DNA of 49,394 bases from a virus (taxonomy: Duplodnaviria; Caudoviricetes). Location of the stretch: IMG/VR virus record IMGVR_UViG_3300016476_001020, positions 1 through 49,394 of that record; one strand, written 5' to 3'. A model generated the notes under the pieces. That model was not told where the DNA came from. It made no database searches and saw only the letters and a list, made by a program, of their open reading frames with translations. Shown here piece after piece: positions 6,975 through 46,636 of this stretch. A program made the position numbers and the translations under genes. How positions within the stretch are numbered: position 1 is the first letter of the stretch; each line of letters starts with the position of its first letter.

Positions 6975-7083
6975 CTGGTTGGCAATTTGTGTGACTTATC
7001 CATTAGTCAAATTTTCCAATTGGCGGAAAATGTTGGATTCGAACCAACAATGAAACAAAGTTTCGGTTTGCTGAAACCAACCA
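6975..7083 (-). ncRNA. Y-RNA-like element E1 (YrlA topology)
   Basis: TGGTTGG-T-TTCAGCA ... T-arm GTTGG-TTCGAAT-CCAAC, acceptor ATTTTCC-GCCA-att-GGAAAAT, D-arm TGAC..GTCA ... CCAACCAG. Confidence 0.8.
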
Positions 7084-7095
7084 ATATATTGTTTA

Positions 7096-7208
7096 CTGGC
7101 TCTGTATGAAACGGCGCCCTACCACTAGGCTAATAGCTGTAACAGCTATAGAGGGATCGAACCTCTGCTTCCGGCTTGATGAGCGATATAAAATGCTGCA
7201 AAGAGCCA
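7096..7208 (-). ncRNA. Y-RNA-like element E2 (permuted tRNA-Met-like module)
   Basis: TGGCTCT-T-TGCAGCA ... T-arm AGAGG-TTCGATC-CCTCT, closed acceptor ATAGCTG-tta-CAGCTAT, D-arm GCCTAGTGGTAGGGC ... AGAGCCAG. Confidence 0.8.
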
Positions 7209-7224: not shown

Positions 7225-8637
7225 TTAGTAGGCGTAGCGATCTTTTTCAAGAGCTTTTAGCATGACGTTATAAGGAGTGTAATCCTCTAGGTCATTAGCT
7301 AGTACAGCCTTCATGATAGAAGGCGAGAAGCCAGAGACTTGGCAAACACCACGACTATCAAAAGAGACAGGAGTGTTACCAGTATCACTACGTAGGTTCC
7401 AGAATACGATTCGTGGAACTGCATAGCCTGCTTCTTCGTACTTACGAGCAATCATCTTGACTGCAGAATCATCGTAACGAGTGCAACGATCAAACTGCAT
7501 ATCAGACAGAATTAGCAGAACTTCTGGCATATCTTCCGCACGGACACGGCTGCGTTGTGCTACAGACAGAATCTCATCGAAAGCACGATGTAGGTCTGTG
7601 TTCATCTCCCAGTCAGAATTAGACATTTTATAAATGCGCTGTGACAGAGAGCCTGAAACTGTAACAAATTCAGGACGGTTGCTAAAAGTAAGGAAAAGAT
7701 CCTTAAAAGCACCAGTATTCTTGCTTGAAGTATACAGACCAAGAGCAACTGCAACTTCAATAGGCTGAACCCCTTTTGTCTGGATGTATGAGAAGCTGCC
7801 CATAGAACCCGATACGTCTACCATTGGTAGAATTTTTGCATCGCCTACATAGTTAGGAAGGGCATTCCACTGTTCATCTGCAACAGAGGCGTTACCTGTA
7901 TAAACAGACTTAACAACGTCGTGAGGGTAAACCGCACCTGCGTTGATCTTAACTTCTGGGTTACGTTCAGCCTGTGGCTTTTTTAGCTCTGCAATATATG
8001 CAGAATACGCTTCAGATGCATTACGACCAAAGGCTTTTTGATAACGCGCAGAAGCGACAGAAGGAACATGTGAGAAGTTAATCTCATCCCACTGCTTAGC
8101 ACACATCTTGTTTTCAACTACGTTGGTTAGACCAACAAGTAGCTTACGATACTGCTTTGGTGTAAGTTTAAAATGACGAGTAAGCTCTACTGCAAGTGGG
8201 CCTTTACGAGGCATCCATTTTGCAGCAAGACCGTCACCCGCGTCTAGCGCAGCCTTAATCATATCAAAAGCGGCACGACGATTGGCCCAATCAGTATAGG
8301 CAAAAAGGTCGTCCCAGCGGCCAAGGAATGGCACCTTATGCATAATCCGAGCAGCTAGTGCTGGGTTCTTGTTATCTAGCTTAGCTAGAATATTACGAAA
8401 TTGAGCACGCTCACCAGCACCCTCGCGAACATCACGAGACCAAAGAAGGGCGCGTACTGCCAGATTCTCATTCTCAGCTAGTGCTGAGAAGAAAGAAGCT
8501 GAAGCATCTTTACCGCGAGCACTACCTACTTCACTGAAGAAATCAAGTACTGCTGAACCAGTAGAAGCGTTAGCACGCATACCATTTTCAGTACGAGCGC
8601 TTGGTACATTGTTGCGAACTGCGTTTGCGAATGACAT
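7225..8637 (-). CDS. DUF2828 family TROVE/Ro60-like helical + vWA protein
   Basis: RTENG..LDFF, RDVREGAGER, GRWDDL, AKWMPR, VPSVA, AGAVYPH, MIDAS DVSGSM, LSDMQFD, VFWNL. Confidence 0.85.
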   Translation of the reverse strand: MSFANAVRNNVPSARTENGMRANASTGSAVLDFFSEVGSARGKDASASFFSALAENENLAVRALLWSRDVREGAGERAQFRNILAKLDNKNPALAARIMHKVPFLGRWDDLFAYTDWANRRAAFDMIKAALDAGDGLAAKWMPRKGPLAVELTRHFKLTPKQYRKLLVGLTNVVENKMCAKQWDEINFSHVPSVASARYQKAFGRNASEAYSAYIAELKKPQAERNPEVKINAGAVYPHDVVKSVYTGNASVADEQWNALPNYVGDAKILPMVDVSGSMGSFSYIQTKGVQPIEVAVALGLYTSSKNTGAFKDLFLTFSNRPEFVTVSGSLSQRIYKMSNSDWEMNTDLHRAFDEILSVAQRSRVRAEDMPEVLLILSDMQFDRCTRYDDSAVKMIARKYEEAGYAVPRIVFWNLRSDTGNTPVSFDSRGVCQVSGFSPSIMKAVLANDLEDYTPYNVMLKALEKDRYAY

Positions 8638-8650
8638 TTTAGTTATTTTC

Positions 8651-8744
8651 CTGGATGAGTTGTTGTACGGATTCGAACCGTTAAGTTTGTTTCATAGACA
8701 AATTGGGAACCATTCCCGTTTTATTAAGCTGCTGAAAGCATCCA
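8651..8744 (-). ncRNA. Y-RNA-like element E3 (D, anticodon ATG and T arms inside the stem)
   Basis: TGGATG-CT-TTCAGCA ... GGGAATGGTTCCC, TTTGT-CTATGAA-ACAAA, ACGG-TTCGAAT-CCGT ... CATCCAG; 3' end overlaps the AGGA SD of DUF2828. Confidence 0.75.
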
Positions 8745-8756
8745 ATAATAAGTGTT

Positions 8757-8853
8757 CAGGATTAGGATTTTGTTGCCGAATCGAACGGCTCAGTTTGATT
8801 AATAGTCAAATGCTCTACCATTGAGCTTACAAATTTTTTGCGGAACTAATCCT
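8757..8853 (-). ncRNA. Y-RNA-like element E4 (tRNA-Asn-like cloverleaf, anticodon ATT, inside the stem)
   Basis: AGGATTAG-TTCCGCA ... GCTCAATGGTAGAGC, TTTGA-CTATTAA-TCAAA, GCCG-TTCGATT-CGGC ... CTAATCCTG. Confidence 0.75.
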
Positions 8854-8862
8854 ATAATAAAG

Positions 8863-9018
8863 TTAAGTTGAACCGAGGTATTTTGGTATCTCAATGTAGG
8901 CGCCTACAAGAAGATTTCAGGCTCCTGCCACTCTGCGGCCACAAAGTTGTTCTTATTGAATGACTCAATAAGTCGTGCTATTCCCTACGCCTAATAAACG
9001 CTTAACGACTCAACTTAA
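8863..9018 (-). ncRNA. stem-closed structured RNA (~155 nt)
   Basis: 13-bp terminal stem TTAAGTTGAGTCG/CGGTTCAACTTAA plus internal hairpins. Confidence 0.45.
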
Positions 9019-9020
9019 AA

Positions 9021-9620
9021 TGCAAACAGGCTCTAAATAATTTGGCCTGCATTGTCTGAGACGTAAAGCAGCGTGAACGTCCTGTTTGCAGTTTAAATTG
9101 AGTGCTGAGGTTATCCTACTCAGCACGGGGTCGCTCCTTGTCCCCGAGGACAGTACTATGAACACTGAAGAACGCTTGGCAACGTAAGCTATCATCAGAC
9201 TAGTACGAGTTCTAGTTGCCACCTAGAGCGGTTAAAGTTAGATAAGTAGTAGCGGTGCCTCATCTGCGCTATACTACACGTCCCGTTAGTAAGGCTAGTC
9301 GATAATTATCTAACAAACCGGTTACTAATCCGGCGACACTTTTTCGTAGTGTCAGATTCTGAACTGAACGGCGATACAATGGACTATTTTTAGGTATCCA
9401 CCCTACCTATACCCAGGGTTATTACTATCGCGGTAATCCTGGTAGCGCGCAGGAGTTCATCCCTATCTGCTCGAAAATAATTAACACAAGGTTCTAGACT
9501 CTTGCGAGTATAATAGAACGCCGTTAATTAGACGGCTGCTAACTATAAGACAACTATAACGTGTTGCCGTATACGTGTAGACTCTACAAACGATTCCCAA
9601 TGTCTAGAAGCAAGGGGACA
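9021..9620 (-). ncRNA. candidate large structured ncRNA(s)
   Basis: No credible ORF; dense nested hairpins, GNRA-type loops. Confidence 0.4.
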
Positions 9621-9621
9621 A

Positions 9622-9693
9622 GTCTCCGGGATGGACTGCAACCACCCTTTCACTGGTTAAGAGCCAGCGTCTTAGCGTCATAGATGACGGAGA
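9622..9693 (-). tRNA. degenerate tRNA-Lys(CTT)-like, no CCA
   Basis: TCTCCG/CGGAGA acceptor, GCTGG-CTCTTAA-CCAGT, atypical T-loop TTGCAGT. Confidence 0.5.
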
Positions 9694-10165
9694 AATAATA
9701 TTGCTTTGTTTACTATAAACAAAGAAACACGCCTGACCATATCATTATTAATCGCACTCAGGTGATTCGTCAGTAGAGCAGTCCAGCAGTCCTGTTACTG
9801 GTTTGTGGCTACGAGTTTATTACATCCGGTTCGTTACGTGGATTTTTATTAGTAATAAGTAGGACGTTTTCCCCTCACGGCACACCGCCTATTATCTATA
9901 CAAATATAGATAATCACGTCCTAAAAGCTGATGGCTACTAACTCTCCGCAGAGAAGTTTTCACAAAAACTGGTCCTCGTAGACTTCTGGTGGGACTCACA
10001 CCGCGTTTTTGACCGATTCTACTTCTAGTCGCTTCCTTTTCACTTACTTTGGTAACGACATAGCCACGCGCTTTTGACGGCGGGTAAGAGGCTAAAATAT
10101 TAATGCTAGCAGTAGTTAACTAGCCTTAGATTATTGTGGCATCTACTACTAGGGGTCTTTAATAT

Positions 10166-10216
10166 CAGGATGAACTTGTTGCATTATCCGAGCAAGTTTG
10201 TAGCTGAACTCATCCT
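10166..10216 (-). ncRNA. Y-RNA-like element E5 (minimal)
   Basis: AGGATGAG-TTCAGCT ... TTCATCCTG; own promoter immediately upstream. Confidence 0.65.
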
Positions 10217-10223
10217 ATAATTC

Positions 10224-10252
10224 ATTATATAGTATTTTTTAGCAGCGTGCAA
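10224..10252 (-). promoter_or_regulatory. sigma70-type promoter for E5
   Basis: TTGCAC-N17-TATAAT; the same TTGC/TTGA-N17-TANNNT pattern recurs across the window. Confidence 0.7.
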
Positions 10253-10265
10253 TAGTAGAGTGAAA

Positions 10266-10333
10266 CTGGATGATACTGAAGCTTTCTAAAATTTATTGGT
10301 TAGAAATTTTCATTAGTTTGCGGAAATCATCCA
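10266..10333 (-). ncRNA. Y-RNA-like element E6 (minimal)
   Basis: TGGATGAT-TTCCGCA ... ATCATCCAG; promoter TTGCCT-N17-TATACT at 10344-10372. Confidence 0.65.
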
Positions 10334-10572
10334 TTACTAATCAAGTATACACTATACTTAAGCACTAGGCAAGAACAATATCACTGTCTTACTACCTGCC
10401 CGCGGGCTAGAATTCTGACAGTGAAGCGACCTACTGACGATCTTAATTGACAAAAGCAGTTATCTGCTAGTAGGTTCCAGGTTTGTCGCTTACTACTACG
10501 AACCTTTCTTCGTATATTTATAATATAACTGATTCGCAACTATCAAGCAAGCTTAAAGTGACATTAGATGCT

Positions 10573-12009: not shown

Positions 12010-12543
12010 TTATTTTTCGTGCCAAGTACCGATTATACTAAGAGCGTTTCGCATATGTTTAATCAGTAATCCGTTCTCAGCGTCTGTTCTAACTAATCTA
12101 CGTTTTCCTAATACTTTCTCAAAATCATAATCATTATCATCGAAAAGTATATAGTCTAAGTGATTGGGAGCATACAACTCAAGATATTCTTTTACTTCGT
12201 GAGCTCGAGTCATGCCTCGCTCATAAAATTTGCTATCATTATTAGGATTCGTTTTCCATAATCTAGCAAACTCGCCACGAAAACCAGCTGCTCGAAAAGT
12301 AGCTATTACCCACTGATACTGATTTGCACTGTCGCAGGTCAGATACTCTTTCCAAGTAGACATCAGAACAAATTCTACACGATCTCTAGTATCATGAATT
12401 TTATTCATAAAGGAGATTGCTACAGGATCAAACACGTTCCACATGTCAAGTGGATTACCGCTAGATAGCTGCACTCTTGTAGAAGTAAATACTCCATCAA
12501 CATCTAAAAATACTAAGTATTTTGCTTCAAGTTTTTTAGTCAT
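12010..12543 (-). CDS. HAD phosphatase, Swiss Army Knife RNA-repair-like
   Basis: FLDVDGV, MSTWK, ILFDD motifs. Confidence 0.75.
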   Translation of the reverse strand: MTKKLEAKYLVFLDVDGVFTSTRVQLSSGNPLDMWNVFDPVAISFMNKIHDTRDRVEFVLMSTWKEYLTCDSANQYQWVIATFRAAGFRGEFARLWKTNPNNDSKFYERGMTRAHEVKEYLELYAPNHLDYILFDDNDYDFEKVLGKRRLVRTDAENGLLIKHMRNALSIIGTWHEK

Positions 12544-14163: not shown

Positions 14164-14667
14164 CTAAGCAAGCTGTAAGTTAAAGTCGTTGCACAAAGCA
14201 GTCAAGTCTTTTTTATGATACAAATTGTAGATTTTTATACCATGATCGTGTGCAATCCGCATAGCCTGTGCTGTACCTCCGCTCATCTTACCGTCGCTAG
14301 TCCAGCATACTAAGAAAGAAGAAGGATTACTCAGGTTATCTCCAAGCACTTGGTATGAATTACGTGACATTAGTTGTAAACCAGCCCTGCTAAGCCGTTC
14401 TGGAGCAGGATGATAGTCATAAACCATTTCTTTATTCATAGGCGGTATAATATACGTATAGTTATCCGCATATTTATCGTTAAACCCGCTCCACGGAAGA
14501 TAGATTCGACGATACTTAGCCCCGGCTTCAAAAGCGCTATCGGCACCCTCTGCACCACCTGAACGCAAGATCCAATTGTCATTAGAAAGTGCAGTTGCTA
14601 TAGCAGTCATTAAAGTTTGAATGTCTAGTGGAGTCTCACGACTTCCGATACCAGTATAGTATTTCAT
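14164..14667 (-). CDS. SLOG/DprA-Smf-like nucleotide-binding protein
   Basis: YTGIGSRETP, LRSGGAEGAD, GGTAQA; start reassigned to ATG at 14667. Confidence 0.75.
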   Translation of the reverse strand: MKYYTGIGSRETPLDIQTLMTAIATALSNDNWILRSGGAEGADSAFEAGAKYRRIYLPWSGFNDKYADNYTYIIPPMNKEMVYDYHPAPERLSRAGLQLMSRNSYQVLGDNLSNPSSFLVCWTSDGKMSGGTAQAMRIAHDHGIKIYNLYHKKDLTALCNDFNLQLA

Positions 14668-15116
14668 AGCTGATATACTACCGCCTGGACTGTTTTCAGC
14701 TCGCTCTCTATAATTGCAGAGATTACAGACCAATCACCGCCACCAAGTGCGGCACCAATTGTTGGCATAGCAATAGTTGAACCACTATACACTTTATTTA
14801 ATGAATGCATAATTTCTGCAACAGCGTCATAGCTTACGTAACGAACAGGATTTGGTCCTAGTTGTTCTGCAGCCTTGCCATATTCTTGTTGAGTAACAGC
14901 ATTGATTATAGTCTTACTACCTACATTAACAGGTAGATACTGTCCTAACCTAAACCCTTTGGCACACCATAAATGATACTCTTCAAAAGCGCTAGGATAA
15001 AGTGCTTTGACTATTTTTGCTACACCTGACCCCATTACACCTTTAGAGTTACACCCGTGAAGAATCACAGGTATTTCAGTACTGAATAAATCACCTTTGC
15101 GATACTCAATTCTCAC
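14664..15116 (-). CDS. macro domain protein (ADP-ribose / Appr-1''-p processing)
   Basis: GDLF, HGCNSKGVMGSGVA, MPTIGAALGGGDW. Confidence 0.85.
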   Translation of the reverse strand: MRIEYRKGDLFSTEIPVILHGCNSKGVMGSGVAKIVKALYPSAFEEYHLWCAKGFRLGQYLPVNVGSKTIINAVTQQEYGKAAEQLGPNPVRYVSYDAVAEIMHSLNKVYSGSTIAMPTIGAALGGGDWSVISAIIESELKTVQAVVYQL

Positions 15117-16672: not shown

Positions 16673-17017
16673 TTATCCTTGATATTTTGTTGCTAAACCT
16701 AGCGATAGCATTTCAACATTGATATTAGTATCATCAATATATATGTCTGCTAGATAGCGACCATACTTTTCTTTTTTATCTTTATAAGTTTTGATAACGA
16801 TAGAAGTACCTACAGGTAGCTTTTCTCGTAACCAATCTCTTGATTTAATGCCTTCGGGTCTTTCTACTCCAGAAATCTCAGGAGCATCAATACCTGCTAG
16901 TCTTAAAGACTGATTATGAATCCAAGTATCAAAACCTAAATCAATCGAGGCTCTAATAGTGTCGCCATCGTAAATAGAGGATACGATTGCTCGATAGGTG
17001 TAAGAAGGCTTATTCAT
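16673..17017 (-). CDS. thermonuclease (SNase-like)
   Basis: IYDGDT, RLAGIDAPE, KYGRYLA. Confidence 0.9.
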   Translation of the reverse strand: MNKPSYTYRAIVSSIYDGDTIRASIDLGFDTWIHNQSLRLAGIDAPEISGVERPEGIKSRDWLREKLPVGTSIVIKTYKDKKEKYGRYLADIYIDDTNINVEMLSLGLATKYQG

Positions 17018-17457: not shown

Positions 17458-17678
17458 CAGAATGTTTGGGGAAAAGCAGATTATAAGTCTGCTGGCACCT
17501 TGCCATACTCCCCATCAAAGATACACTGATTCGGGGACAATGCTAATTCGCAAACGAACATTGCCTTTATCCGTGGATACATATCTGTCGTGTTTCATAC
17601 AGTCCATATCACAGTGTAGCTGTGGTGGGGAGTATCGGAATCGAACCGATGAATTTTCTTGTTTGCTGTAAACATTCT
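17458..17678 (-). ncRNA. Y-RNA-like element E7, a circularly permuted tRNA(TAT) with intervening sequence
   Basis: AGAATGTT-TACAGCA...T-arm-ACTCCCC-ACCA [109 nt] GGGGAGT-D-arm-GCAGA-CTTATAA-TCTGC...AACATTCTG. Confidence 0.8.
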
Positions 17679-19941: not shown

Positions 19942-20067
19942 CAGGTTCATTTATAATGACAGCCGCGTCTACCATTCCGCCATACCTCCCATAAGCGAGG
20001 CAGTAGGACTCGAACCTACACGTTTTTCAACAGCCGTTTTTTCATATATCTATGCTGTATTGAACCT
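19942..20067 (-). ncRNA. Y-RNA-like element E8 (permuted tRNA-Leu-like module)
   Basis: AGGTTCA-A-TACAGCA...V-arm, T-arm GTAGG-TTCGAGT-CCTAC, closed acceptor, Leu-type D-arm GGCGGAATGGTAGACGC...TGAACCTG. Confidence 0.8.
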
Positions 20068-21764: not shown

Positions 21765-22607
21765 GCATCGCCTGAGACTACAGCTTTGCAAGAGAGCCTT
21801 CACAGTGTACCGCGTTCCTTGCGAGAAGCGTTGCTGCGTAATCCACTGAAGCCTATGTCCTTGCGGGACAGTCAACGGTCATTCAGTATCTCTCAGTGCT
21901 GCTTTTTATAAGGTGTAGCTTTTCACCTATCATACGTTGATACTCATCCGTCTATCCTTCGTCTGCCTTGCGAGCAGTTCACAGTCGCTAAACCGTTACG
22001 CTATCTTTCTGAATGAACAACTCAACCTTGCGGGCATCGTTGCACTGACTTCCTTGCGGGCCAGTATTAAGCACCTTTCTCAACGTACTGGAGTAGACTT
22101 TCGCTTTTTCTATGTATAAAATTGCATTTATCCAAAATAAATTGGGCTTTGAACCCTGCGATAACCTACTGAGATGTGCTACTCCCGCTGCTTCATGCCT
22201 TGTTAGACACAAAATACAACACACCTCCTGTCTTTCACCTTGCGAGCTACTCAACGGCTTTTCAAGTATCTAGGTATTACCCTTTCAACTCTAAAGCTGA
22301 TAATTTGCCTTTCTGCGCAAACAGTCAGACTATTATCTACCCATTGGTATTACATGTTCGTTAGTTTGGCTGAAAATCGTGAGGGCGCCAACCCCCTTAT
22401 TGCTCACCGACCGGCTCTGCAACTATCTTTTCAGACGATCTTCCTAACTTAGCACTTACTGCCCAACTTATTGTTAGACAGAGACTACTTACGCATCTGC
22501 GAGTAATCTTAACCTGGGCTTGCATAGATGAACCATTGCTGGCGCGAGTATGTAGGGTTTCTCGCTTTGGGTGTATCACTACACTTATTCTATGACGCTA
22601 TGCCGCC
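21765..22607 (-). ncRNA. GOLLD-like giant ornate ncRNA (~840 nt)
   Basis: No real ORF; many CGCAAG/GAAA tetraloop hairpins; in tRNA array; promoter TTGCCT-N17-TAATAT at 22623-22651; family assignment from recall. Confidence 0.7.
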
Positions 22608-26817: not shown

Positions 26818-26893
26818 TGGCGCCTTTAACAGGAATCGAACCTGTTTCCTACTACGTTAGGGCGCAGCTGCACTACCTTAGTGCTATAAAGGC
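26818..26893 (-). tRNA. tRNA-Arg(CCT)-like with non-7-nt anticodon loop
   Basis: GCTGCG-CCCTAA-CGTAGT; other arms canonical; GCCA end. Confidence 0.6.
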
Positions 26894-29215: not shown

Positions 29216-29307
29216 TGGTAGAAGTGCTGGGACTCGAACCCAGTCAAGAACGCTAATCTGGCGCTAAAAGGCTTATAAGGCCTCTCTGACTACCCAGTCT
29301 CACTTCC
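29216..29307 (-). tRNA. tRNA-Ile(TAT) with long variable arm
   Basis: GAGGC-CTTATAA-GCCTT, short D-loop, long V-arm, CCA. Confidence 0.8.
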
Positions 29308-44641: not shown

Positions 44642-44914
44642 ATGAAAATATATGTAAAAAATAATGATATTAGCCGTGCTCTACGTGTTCTTAAGAAAAA
44701 ACTTCATGACGAAGGCGAAACAAAAGAACTGAGAGAGCGTCAGCACTTTGTATCAGATGGAGAGCGTCGTCGTTTAGCTGAACGCGCTGGAAAGCGTCGT
44801 TGGCTTAAGAAACGTCAACGTATCGAACAAAATATGGTACGGGCTGAACAAAATCTTATCAAACAGAATCGTAAAAAGCGACAGACTGAACAAAGAAATA
44901 AAACTGTTGCTTAA
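44642..44914 (+). CDS. rpsU: ribosomal protein bS21
   Basis: IYVKNNDISRALRVLKKK..ELRERQHF. Confidence 0.85.
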   Translation: MKIYVKNNDISRALRVLKKKLHDEGETKELRERQHFVSDGERRRLAERAGKRRWLKKRQRIEQNMVRAEQNLIKQNRKKRQTEQRNKTVA

Positions 44915-45206: not shown

Positions 45207-45476
45207 TTCTTATGTGCTAGTAGAAACAGAGGATATTGACTTCTCAATGTTACGCTCAGCTATAAATATGTTAGCAAAAACACGCTACCGTTTTCATGAT
45301 AAGGTTTTTGAAGAACCTTATACGCCGTATTTTGATGCTTATCGCGGTCATACATTTGTGATTGATCATGCATCATCAGAAGATGAAACTGGTAATCATG
45401 TTTGGCTTACTTGTATATCAGATGATAGCGTAAAAGTCTCTGGATATGTACATCTGGATCAGTTAGTAATAGAATA

Positions 45477-45781
45477 GCTCTGATTACGTAAATCGGATGC
45501 AGCATGGACCTGGGGGCGGTACCCAGCGAGTCCACCACAGATACTCTTGCTTTGATAAGCCCAGATATAGTTGCAACTACTGGATAACTGAAAAGAGTAT
45601 CTTTGATGGGCTCGAAATAGGATCGACATGTTGAGCAAGAAGAAACCAGGAGCCAGTGCGCAAGCGACTGATAACCGCAAGAAACATAATAACTGCAAAC
45701 GATAATTTTGCACCAGTATCTCTAGCTCTAGCAGCTTGATTTACTATCGGTATGGTACCACCGGGAAACAGAACGGGCCGC
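45477..45781 (+). ncRNA. ssrA: circularly permuted (two-piece) tmRNA, tag ANDNFAPVSLALAA
   Basis: T-arm + CGAGTCC-ACCA (ends 45537), intervening sequence, GGGCTCG (45608, G3:U70), tag frame 45695-45739. Confidence 0.92.
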
Positions 45782-45808
45782 TATACATCACATCACAAAG
45801 GACACTAC

Positions 45809-46636
45809 ATGACATTTATTAACTATCCACAGCCTACTGTAGGAGGCTACGTATTACCTTCAGTACCATCAATCTCATCAGTAACCTCTGCTCGTAGAAT
45901 TACTGATTTTAATCCTCTCTCGCTAGTAGAAGCGTTTAAGCCAAAGCGAGCAGGTAAGAATAAGAATTTAGCACACGTAGTTGTAGTTCTTGACGACTCC
46001 TCATCTATGCAAAGTTGTTTAGAAGCTACTATTTCAGGATTTAACGAATTTATTGCTGGACAAAAGACTGATGCTAAGCAGTCCGGTATTAAAACACTAG
46101 TATCTCTATTCAAATTTAATGGCTCCCACGTAACTTGTGTATTTGACAGACAAGACGTTGAAACGGTAGAGCCTCTCACTAAGAAAACATATAACCCAAG
46201 CGGTAATACTAATCTTCTAGATGCTATGGGCGGCGTACTCATGAAAATCAATGAGTTACTAACTGCCAAGAATAAAGCAGATCGCGAATCAGTAATTGTA
46301 ACAGTTCTTACTGATGGCGAAGAAAACGCTTCCCGTACTTTTAAAAATACCGATATTAAAGGCATGGTAGAAAAGGCACAAGGCAAAAGCTGGGCTTTCA
46401 TGTTCCTAGGCGCTAACATTGATGCGTTTTCAACTAGTTCTAGTCTTGGATTCAGTACGCACAATACTATGCAGTATGATACACGAAATATTGCGTCTAC
46501 TATGGCATCAGCCAGCCGCATGGCTAACTCACTAAAAAGTGAGTTAAGCAAGGGTGTAAGTCTTGATTTAGCTTACGCACAAACTTCCTTTACTGATGCA
46601 GAACGAAGTGCAGCGGTAGCAAAGAATGACAAATAA
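45809..46636 (+). CDS. vWA domain protein
   Basis: VLDDSSSM MIDAS, TNLLDA, LTDGEENAS, FLGAN; start set to ATG 45809 after SD AAGGA. Confidence 0.85.
   Translation: MTFINYPQPTVGGYVLPSVPSISSVTSARRITDFNPLSLVEAFKPKRAGKNKNLAHVVVVLDDSSSMQSCLEATISGFNEFIAGQKTDAKQSGIKTLVSLFKFNGSHVTCVFDRQDVETVEPLTKKTYNPSGNTNLLDAMGGVLMKINELLTAKNKADRESVIVTVLTDGEENASRTFKNTDIKGMVEKAQGKSWAFMFLGANIDAFSTSSSLGFSTHNTMQYDTRNIASTMASASRMANSLKSELSKGVSLDLAYAQTSFTDAERSAAVAKNDK

Follow-up and report, generated by a model that had tools for sequence, protein, structure and literature searches.

The RNA encoded at 17678-17459 on the minus strand of the window probably acts as a tRNA mimic bound by a Ro60-like phage protein rather than as a functional tRNA for isoleucine. 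The window is the whole stretch of viral DNA that was analysed (49,394 nucleotides). We read the element as a tRNA mimic of the YrlA type, likely opened by RNase P, likely bound by a Ro-like protein, and probably serving as a decoy; as a whole, this reading has about an even chance of being right. The RNA family to which the element belongs is real, with covarying handle, T, spacer, and anticodon-position stems. An earlier note on the same DNA had proposed a circularly permuted tRNA(UAU) that is processed, like two-piece tmRNA, into a chargeable two-piece tRNA with a protein-binding handle.

The virus record of the window is ~17% complete and contains 34 tRNA calls and one permuted tmRNA. The tmRNA fits the alphaproteobacterial Rfam model, which hints at the host group without showing it. 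The element, its parts, and the associated features in the window are:

17678-17459, minus strand: whole RNA gene, tRNA-shaped, the 3′ half preceding the 5′ half.
17670-17678, minus strand: 5′ strand of the handle stem and start of the RNA; pairs with 17459-17467 over 9 bp.
17651-17669, minus strand: ACAGCAA motif and A-rich linker, containing GAAAA (17658-17654); likely the site of a Ro-like protein, by prediction.
17634-17650, minus strand: T arm, 5 bp, loop UUCGAUU.
17633-17627, minus strand: 3′ strand of the acceptor, followed by A73 (17626) and an encoded CCA ending at 17623.
17622-17514, minus strand: spacer of 109 nt; a conserved closing stem of 9-10 bp around exchangeable cargo.
17507-17513, minus strand: 5′ strand of the acceptor, with U at -1; predicted RNase P site before 17513.
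17494-17506, minus strand: two-base linker (A8, U9) and minimal D hairpin (17504-17494) with a GG-containing loop.
17476-17493, minus strand: anticodon-position hairpin, a 5-bp stem with a 7-nt CUUAUAA loop at 17492-17476; swappable module.
17459-17475, minus strand: pyrimidine linker and 3′ strand of the handle stem; TTTTC (17475-17471) can pair with GAAAA (17658-17654).
8652-8744, minus strand: sister handle RNA immediately upstream of where the DUF2828 gene starts; in place of an acceptor stem it has the handle, with a D hairpin, a 7-nt loop with AUG, and a T arm.
7225-8637, minus strand: DUF2828/DUF7788 protein (Pfam; PHROG 850 'RNA-binding protein') with a Ro60-like fold; likely the handle partner, by prediction.
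7097-7208, minus strand: sister handle RNA, its parts ordered as in YrlA and its acceptor hairpin closed; weak folding alone (z -0.2).
6976-7083, minus strand: sister handle RNA with a T arm, an 8-bp acceptor-like hairpin, and a D-like hairpin (z -2.8).
45445-45830, plus strand: permuted tmRNA; its spacer (45538-45607, 70 nt) has the same cassette ends.

The RNA starts 6 nt past the CCA of tRNA-Leu(UAG). Its joined ends form the 9-bp handle with an 11-by-3 internal loop, its acceptor is 7 bp long, and both G4-C69 and A8 are present. None of 200 shuffles folds as well as the element (z -4.0). Neither ARAGORN nor Rfam calls it; the best Rfam matches at E<=10 are partial, weak matches to permuted tmRNA (15.8 bits against a threshold of 47). 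A scan for promoters and terminators gives no signal above the chance level. The parts that the earlier note named (3′ half, CCA, 109-nt spacer, and 5′ half) are confirmed base for base on the minus strand, and its description of a permuted, tRNA-shaped RNA with a 7-bp acceptor, an encoded CCA, and a spacer predicted to be removable and closed by a stem is supported.

The window also contains a GOLLD RNA (21769-22227, minus strand, 168 bits). ORFs on the minus strand encode HAD_SAK_2, an RNA-repair HAD (12010-12543), a Macro domain (14664-15116), and an SNase-type nuclease (16673-17017); ORFs on the plus strand encode ribosomal protein S21 (44642-44914) and a vWA-like protein (45752-46636). 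Two tRNA calls on the minus strand are odd: Asn(ATT) at 8765-8835 adjoins a handle RNA, and the anticodon of the call at 26818-26893 is unreadable.

Relatives were collected with the D arm as search anchor, which gives 22 viral and 37 metagenome loci (59 in total). The element is present in 45 of them; the other 14 are chance matches and were dropped before counts were made. Loops were counted in 33 distinct copies. There are 31 distinct full-length sequences, 27 of which enter the alignment and the tree, and three copies (L151, L158, and L185) are cut or interrupted and lie outside the full-length pattern. Because the anchor fixes the D arm and the 5′ acceptor strand, the invariance of both is no evidence, and CAGCAA in the 5′ linkers of the 31 members was likewise required by the search pattern. 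The T stem, the 3′ acceptor strand, the spacer, and the anticodon-position arm are unconstrained by the anchor. Isolate phages give no full-length match to the element; one partial match leads to a short-spacer handle RNA in phage DLP6. In GTDB genomes, three exact D-arm matches are found, none with the element. A search with the neighbouring 85-aa ORF returns one distant locus.

In the 27 aligned sequences, 99.3% of the cells are paired and 15 of the 40 pairs are altered on both sides. None of 500 shuffles scores as high, and slid controls are 34-46% paired. Pairs that change on both sides make up 2/9 of the handle stem in relatives, 5/9 of the spacer closing stem, and 6/6 of the anticodon-position hairpin. 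The T arm is paired in 31/31 full-length sequences, with two compensating pairs, and the 3′ acceptor strand is a perfect complement in 29/31. N73 is A in 20 of these sequences, G in nine, and T in two. In a wider relative (L208), the stem of the D hairpin is reversed around the same loop.

The ends of the spacer nearly equal those of the tmRNA spacer, as the earlier note had pointed out; one A-U pair is exchanged for U-A, and the element's spacer stem also has one unpaired C.U. A scan with the 3′ end of the spacer matches at least 120 viral loci (of an estimated 630 stretches). Among the 120 loci listed, 59 parse as permuted tmRNAs and three are true homologs of the element. Since 59 of the 120 are permuted tmRNAs, the shared ends are a common feature of phage tmRNA spacers and no private link between two genes of the window. 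Cellular alphaproteobacterial tmRNAs (26 spacers parsed from 31 loci) have the 5′ end motif in 0/26 and the 3′ motif in 1/26, with a few of the spacers ending similarly.

The family has 29 distinct spacers, which are 64-109 nt long and form 17 clusters; their ends are fixed and their closing stem is conserved. A phage tmRNA spacer is matched by 11 of the 29, from four clusters, with a core identity of 73-92% (shuffled maximum 67%). In particular, the copy in L191 carries the spacer of the window's own tmRNA (core 88% identical). Whole spacers move between the element and phage tmRNA, and the scatter of spacers on near-identical backbones shows exchange among phages, presumably by recombination. 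The spacer of phage two-piece tmRNA is a cassette that also enters a second, different host RNA. The cargo of the window's own spacer has no relative among the family and tmRNA spacers compared (four exact 16-base matches, none extending), and it folds no better than shuffles (z -0.4).

Two ORFs lie within RNAs of these kinds. In L351 (2954-3586, minus strand; record G018), the acceptor 3′ strand of the element's homolog is split by an ORF for a GIY-YIG endonuclease, with five bases repeated at both flanks; homing is a possible route for cassette exchange. In L331 (1670-2030, minus strand; record G025, a complete phage), the tmRNA spacer holds an ORF of ~100 codons whose Cys/His pairs look HNH-like by eye and which has no Pfam match.

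The variety of spacers raises an alternative in which the tRNA-shaped frame recruits RNase P and 3′ trimming, and the released spacer RNA is the working product, perhaps in tmRNA as well. The 29 distinct spacers with fixed ends, the 11 that match phage tmRNA spacers, and the near-absence of the end motifs from cellular alphaproteobacterial tmRNA spacers speak for it. However, the 17 relatives with spacers of just 3-17 nt described below have the handle, T arm, acceptor, and CCA, and hence show a frame that lacks cargo. The window's spacer has shuffle-like folding and no relative among the spacers compared, and a handle would be superfluous. We therefore consider this alternative unlikely.

The short-spacer relatives come from a more permissive scan (119 loci; 770 stretches estimated), which yields at least 17 handle RNAs with an encoded CCA and spacers of 3-17 nt. 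The covariance model of the element fits the best ones along its entire length (E 1e-16 to 1e-5). DUF7788 is encoded in 16/16 searchable records with short-spacer handle RNAs and in 5/29 control records (Fisher p 3e-8, uncorrected for kinship). The 17th record was excluded from the count as it had been chosen for adjoining the gene, and the 29 controls counted were hand-picked, with longer contigs preferred, from 70 loci that have an ARAGORN tRNA over the match. This association with a Ro60-like gene supports the putative protein-binding handle proposed earlier. In the exact family, the DUF2828 gene is present in 5/18 records, which are mostly small fragments, and in the one complete record. 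The element and the gene are on the same strand, separated by 8.8 kb in the window and by ~2 kb in L129 and L130. A complete relative that has the gene (G028) gives only a partial match to the element model, so the element looks dispensable.

The predicted fold of the DUF2828/DUF7788 protein resembles that of Ro60. In a Foldseek search with the protein model, 13/13 hits at E<=0.001 are Ro60 structures, with 9KOP at the top; the model itself is poor (pTM 0.43; TM 0.27-0.37 to Ro60). Among its Atlas neighbours outside the protein's own families, 27/30 carry TROVE and vWA_Ro60. Pfam TROVE has no match in the protein, and a PDB sequence search with it gives no meaningful match to a solved Ro60. 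Matches to the protein are found in 710 isolate phage records. One of these phages, DLP6 (KU682439), also encodes a CCA-bearing, unannotated handle RNA with a 6-nt spacer (L002:6007-6103).

The CAGCA motif recurs in the RNAs flanking the DUF2828/DUF7788 gene. RNAs of the acceptor-less type at 8652-8744 show seven loop triplets, UAU included, across 15 loci on fixed stems; anticodon loops are thus displayed here on RNAs that cannot be charged. In L132, L134, and L135, a different handle RNA with a CUUAUAA loop occupies that upstream site. Elsewhere on the minus strand of the window, a CAGC-handle stem with a T arm and tRNA-like hairpins lies at 19943-20067, and another CAGC-handle stem, recognized by eye only, lies at 10160-10216. 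A region of ~1.7 kb (~8850-10560, minus strand) has no ORF of >=80 aa, tRNA call, or Rfam call, and may hold more RNAs.

Handle RNAs that accompany a Ro-like protein might also join it to a host RNase such as PNPase, or block an RNase, with the tRNA fold and CCA being merely protective. Precedents exist: Rsr is held on PNPase by a Y RNA (PMC4201824), and PNPase of the host is bound and slowed by phage phiRo60 with its Yrl RNAs (PMC12135203). Such a role would leave unexplained the near-fixed acceptor, the encoded CCA with its spacer cassette, and the anticodon loops on several handle RNAs, and we regard it as decidedly improbable.

The anticodon-position hairpin is the most variable module of the element. 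Its loop is GNRA in 21 of the 33 distinct copies, a long arm with a GUGAAA-type loop in six, CUCAUAA in four, CUUAUAA in one, and another type in one. The CUUAUAA loop occurs in the window copy only. These counts do not support a conserved tRNA(UAU), as UAU is found once, CAU four times, and no anticodon loop at all in 28 copies. The earlier note's expectation that anticodon pairing is kept in relatives is borne out for the stem at this position and fails for the loop, with a GNRA tetraloop in 21/33. The TTTTC/GAAAA junction is present in the window and is not a general feature, as GAAAA is found in 8/31 relatives.

On a tree of the remaining parts and the flank, the anticodon label needs at least two changes. 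The window groups with three CAU copies (support 100/99), and the fourth CAU copy (L192), on an over-long arm, lies elsewhere. Long and short arms occur on near-identical backbones. In this four-member clade, compensatory changes preserve the stem, the loop reads CUYAUAA, the TTTTC/GAAAA stem is possible in 4/4, and N73 is G in two. The five anticodon-loop copies as a group have A73 in two and G73 in three, which goes against charging by IleRS. A source of the anticodon arm was sought; two phage tRNA(CAT) genes differ from it at 3/18 bases, which is a lead only.

The clade of four also gives rise to the alternative that this lineage has rebuilt a chargeable two-piece tRNA-Ile that reads AUA, through UAU in the window and lysidine-CAU in its kin, with the handle as a large variable arm. 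Several features of a decoding tRNA are present: a 7-bp acceptor, a T arm, and CCA throughout, and in the window a canonical 7-nt loop on a 5-bp stem together with A73. The part of PMC9976931 available to us reports that lysidine-modified CAU reads AUA and cites work on tRNA-Ile bearing UAU as its anticodon in lactic acid bacteria. AUA accounts for 95/274 Ile codons in 17 window ORFs. However, 28/33 copies have no anticodon loop, and G73 is found in two of the clade of four. In the same part of PMC9976931, the discriminator and the anticodon are strong IleRS determinants and C4-G69 a minor one; the element has A8, and G4-C69 in 31/31, versus C4-G69 in E. coli tRNA-Ile. Apart from the element, the window encodes tRNA-Ile(GAT), one unpermuted tRNA(TAT), and three tRNA(CAT). 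ARAGORN calls a tRNA in 0/31 re-ordered forms, a weak test in which the long arm alone may defeat the tool. Taken together, we consider a rebuilt tRNA-Ile very unlikely. A slim chance is left for AUA decoding in the window's four-member lineage, because the clade keeps the stem, CUYAUAA, and the small stem, and because UAU and lysidine-CAU would both read AUA. Equally slim is the chance of a Y-RNA chassis that has gained an anticodon arm, a chargeable two-piece AUA-reading tRNA that would be stored or gated by the Ro-like protein via the handle and would release a mobile RNA shared with tmRNA. If true, the bacterial world would have a permuted tRNA that decodes, derived from a tRNA mimic.

The unpermuted tRNA(TAT) reported earlier is confirmed at 29216-29307 on the minus strand, with a long variable arm and a D loop of 4 nt. 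It has G1-U72, and a close copy is present in L129. Descent of the element from this gene is unsupported, as the acceptor and the D arm differ.

Ordinary features recognized by RNase P are a 7-bp acceptor, a T arm, U at -1, and RCCA, all of which the element has. In the YrlA-type reading that we prefer, the RNA would be made as part of the tRNA operon transcript of the minus strand and released 6 nt behind tRNA-Leu(UAG). Covariation shows that it folds into the handle and T arm, the stems of acceptor and spacer, and the D and anticodon-position hairpins. RNase P would probably cut before 17513, and 3′ trimming to the CCA at 17623 would release the 109-nt spacer. N73 pairs with the spacer base at -1 in 29/31, so the cut is perhaps one base earlier. 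A Ro-like protein would, quite likely, bind the CAGCAA handle and hold the two pieces together. The weakest step, which we put forward tentatively and with less than even confidence, is that the complex displays a tRNA elbow and a free acceptor end (and, in the window lineage, a Met/Ile2-type anticodon loop), thereby luring tRNA-attacking enzymes of the host. The spacer and the anticodon-position hairpin are modules that phages exchange, as their scatter on near-identical backbones shows, presumably by recombination. We choose the decoy because anticodon loops sit on acceptor-less RNAs, vary on fixed stems, and come and go on the element. The variation of the loops could be drift, and the conservation in the clade of four (stem, CUYAUAA, and TTTTC/GAAAA) fits a real tRNA function just as well.

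The closest precedent is YrlA (Chen et al. 2014, PMC4201824). The element has the YrlA order of handle, T arm, acceptor, D arm, and handle, and a 7-bp acceptor, and YrlA also occurs in phages (PMC4201824). YrlA is encoded with a Ro60-fold protein, and the window encodes one with a predicted Ro60-like fold; a YrlA gene would be expected on the strand of a gene for TROVE-domain Ro60 and within ~4 kb of it. In M. smegmatis, RNase P cleaves YrlA and CCA is added (PMC4201824), which gives a two-piece RNA like the one that is predicted for the element. However, the handle of the element has CAGCAA and not GNCGAA, and its partner DUF2828/DUF7788 has no Pfam TROVE match. The CCA of the element is fully encoded and is followed by a cassette of 64-109 nt shared with tmRNA, its D loop is minimal, and it has the extra anticodon-position hairpin, with an anticodon loop in 5/33. 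The YrlA motif GNCGAAN0-1G (PMC4201824) is found in 0/31 member 5′ linkers, and the Rfam YrlA model has no match at E<=10 in the window region nor at E<=1 in seven related loci. The failure of the motif and of the Rfam match, together with the lack of a Pfam TROVE match in the partner, is why we do not file the element as YrlA.

In red and green algae and in archaea, permuted tRNA genes, which the earlier note had given as context, also place the 3′ half first, with a spacer between the acceptor strands. Their ends form a bulge-helix-bulge, and splicing enzymes produce a one-piece decoding tRNA. The ends of the element instead form a 9-bp stem with an asymmetric internal loop and no bulge-helix-bulge, and its anticodon is unconserved. 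We do not class the element with the algal or archaeal permuted tRNAs; the nearest precedent is the bacterial YrlA.

Like permuted two-piece tmRNA (RF01849, RF04321; the available part of PMC11915505), the element runs from the 3′ half through CCA and spacer to the 5′ half, and spacers are shared. Unlike tmRNA, it has G3-C70, a D hairpin, closure by the CAGCAA handle, and no tag reading frame that we see; given G3-C70 in particular, it does not count as a tmRNA. Also highly improbable is a tmRNA derivative without a tag that either disturbs or helps trans-translation: the permuted order, the spacer cassette, the G-rich acceptor, and the weak RF04321 match agree with one, and such a form in phage DS6A inhibits tmRNA (PMC11915505), but G3 pairs with C70 and not U70 in 31/31, U70 is found in 47/47 parsed phage tmRNAs, a D hairpin stands where tmRNA has its D loop, and the element is more closely related to the short-spacer handle RNAs. 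With tRNA-Ile(UAU) of lactic acid bacteria (the available part of PMC9976931) and the window's tRNA(TAT) at 29216, the element shares the CUUAUAA loop, A73, and a short D loop. Those tRNAs are unpermuted, whereas the kin of the element drop the loop.

No title or abstract opening describing the element, CAGCAA handles, or spacer exchange is returned by a full-text literature search, whose coverage leaves out most subscription journals. Y-like RNAs in T4-like phages were reportedly described by Nolan and co-workers in 2006. Terms for Y-like RNAs were not found in the main text of that paper (PMC1524935). As far as the accessible part of PMC7824862 goes, jumbo phages encode ROT/TROVE proteins with a tRNA-like partner. 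A prior description may exist in the supplements of PMC4201824 or PMC11915505, or in reviews on RNA repair (2016) or Ro60 (2020).

The phiRo60 of Thermus phage phiLo, with Yrl1 and Yrl2 (PMC12135203), resembles the window in pairing a phage Ro60-fold protein with adjacent RNAs, and 9KOP is the top structural hit. Unlike the element, the phiRo60 RNAs use a CGAA motif, and the terms tRNA-like, CCA, and anticodon do not occur in the main text of PMC12135203. Yrn1 of D. radiodurans (PMC4201824) is a Y RNA for which an anticodon-like arm can be drawn, similar to the sister RNA at 8652-8744, which has D, anticodon-like, and T arms on a handle. Unlike Yrn1, the element has the YrlA order, an openable acceptor, and the anticodon-position hairpin. 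The role of the tRNA-like domain in bacterial Y RNAs is an open question (PMC4201824). Phage handle RNAs vary one tRNA part at a time, with the acceptor open or closed and the anticodon loop present, absent, or changed, and this natural variation makes the question testable.
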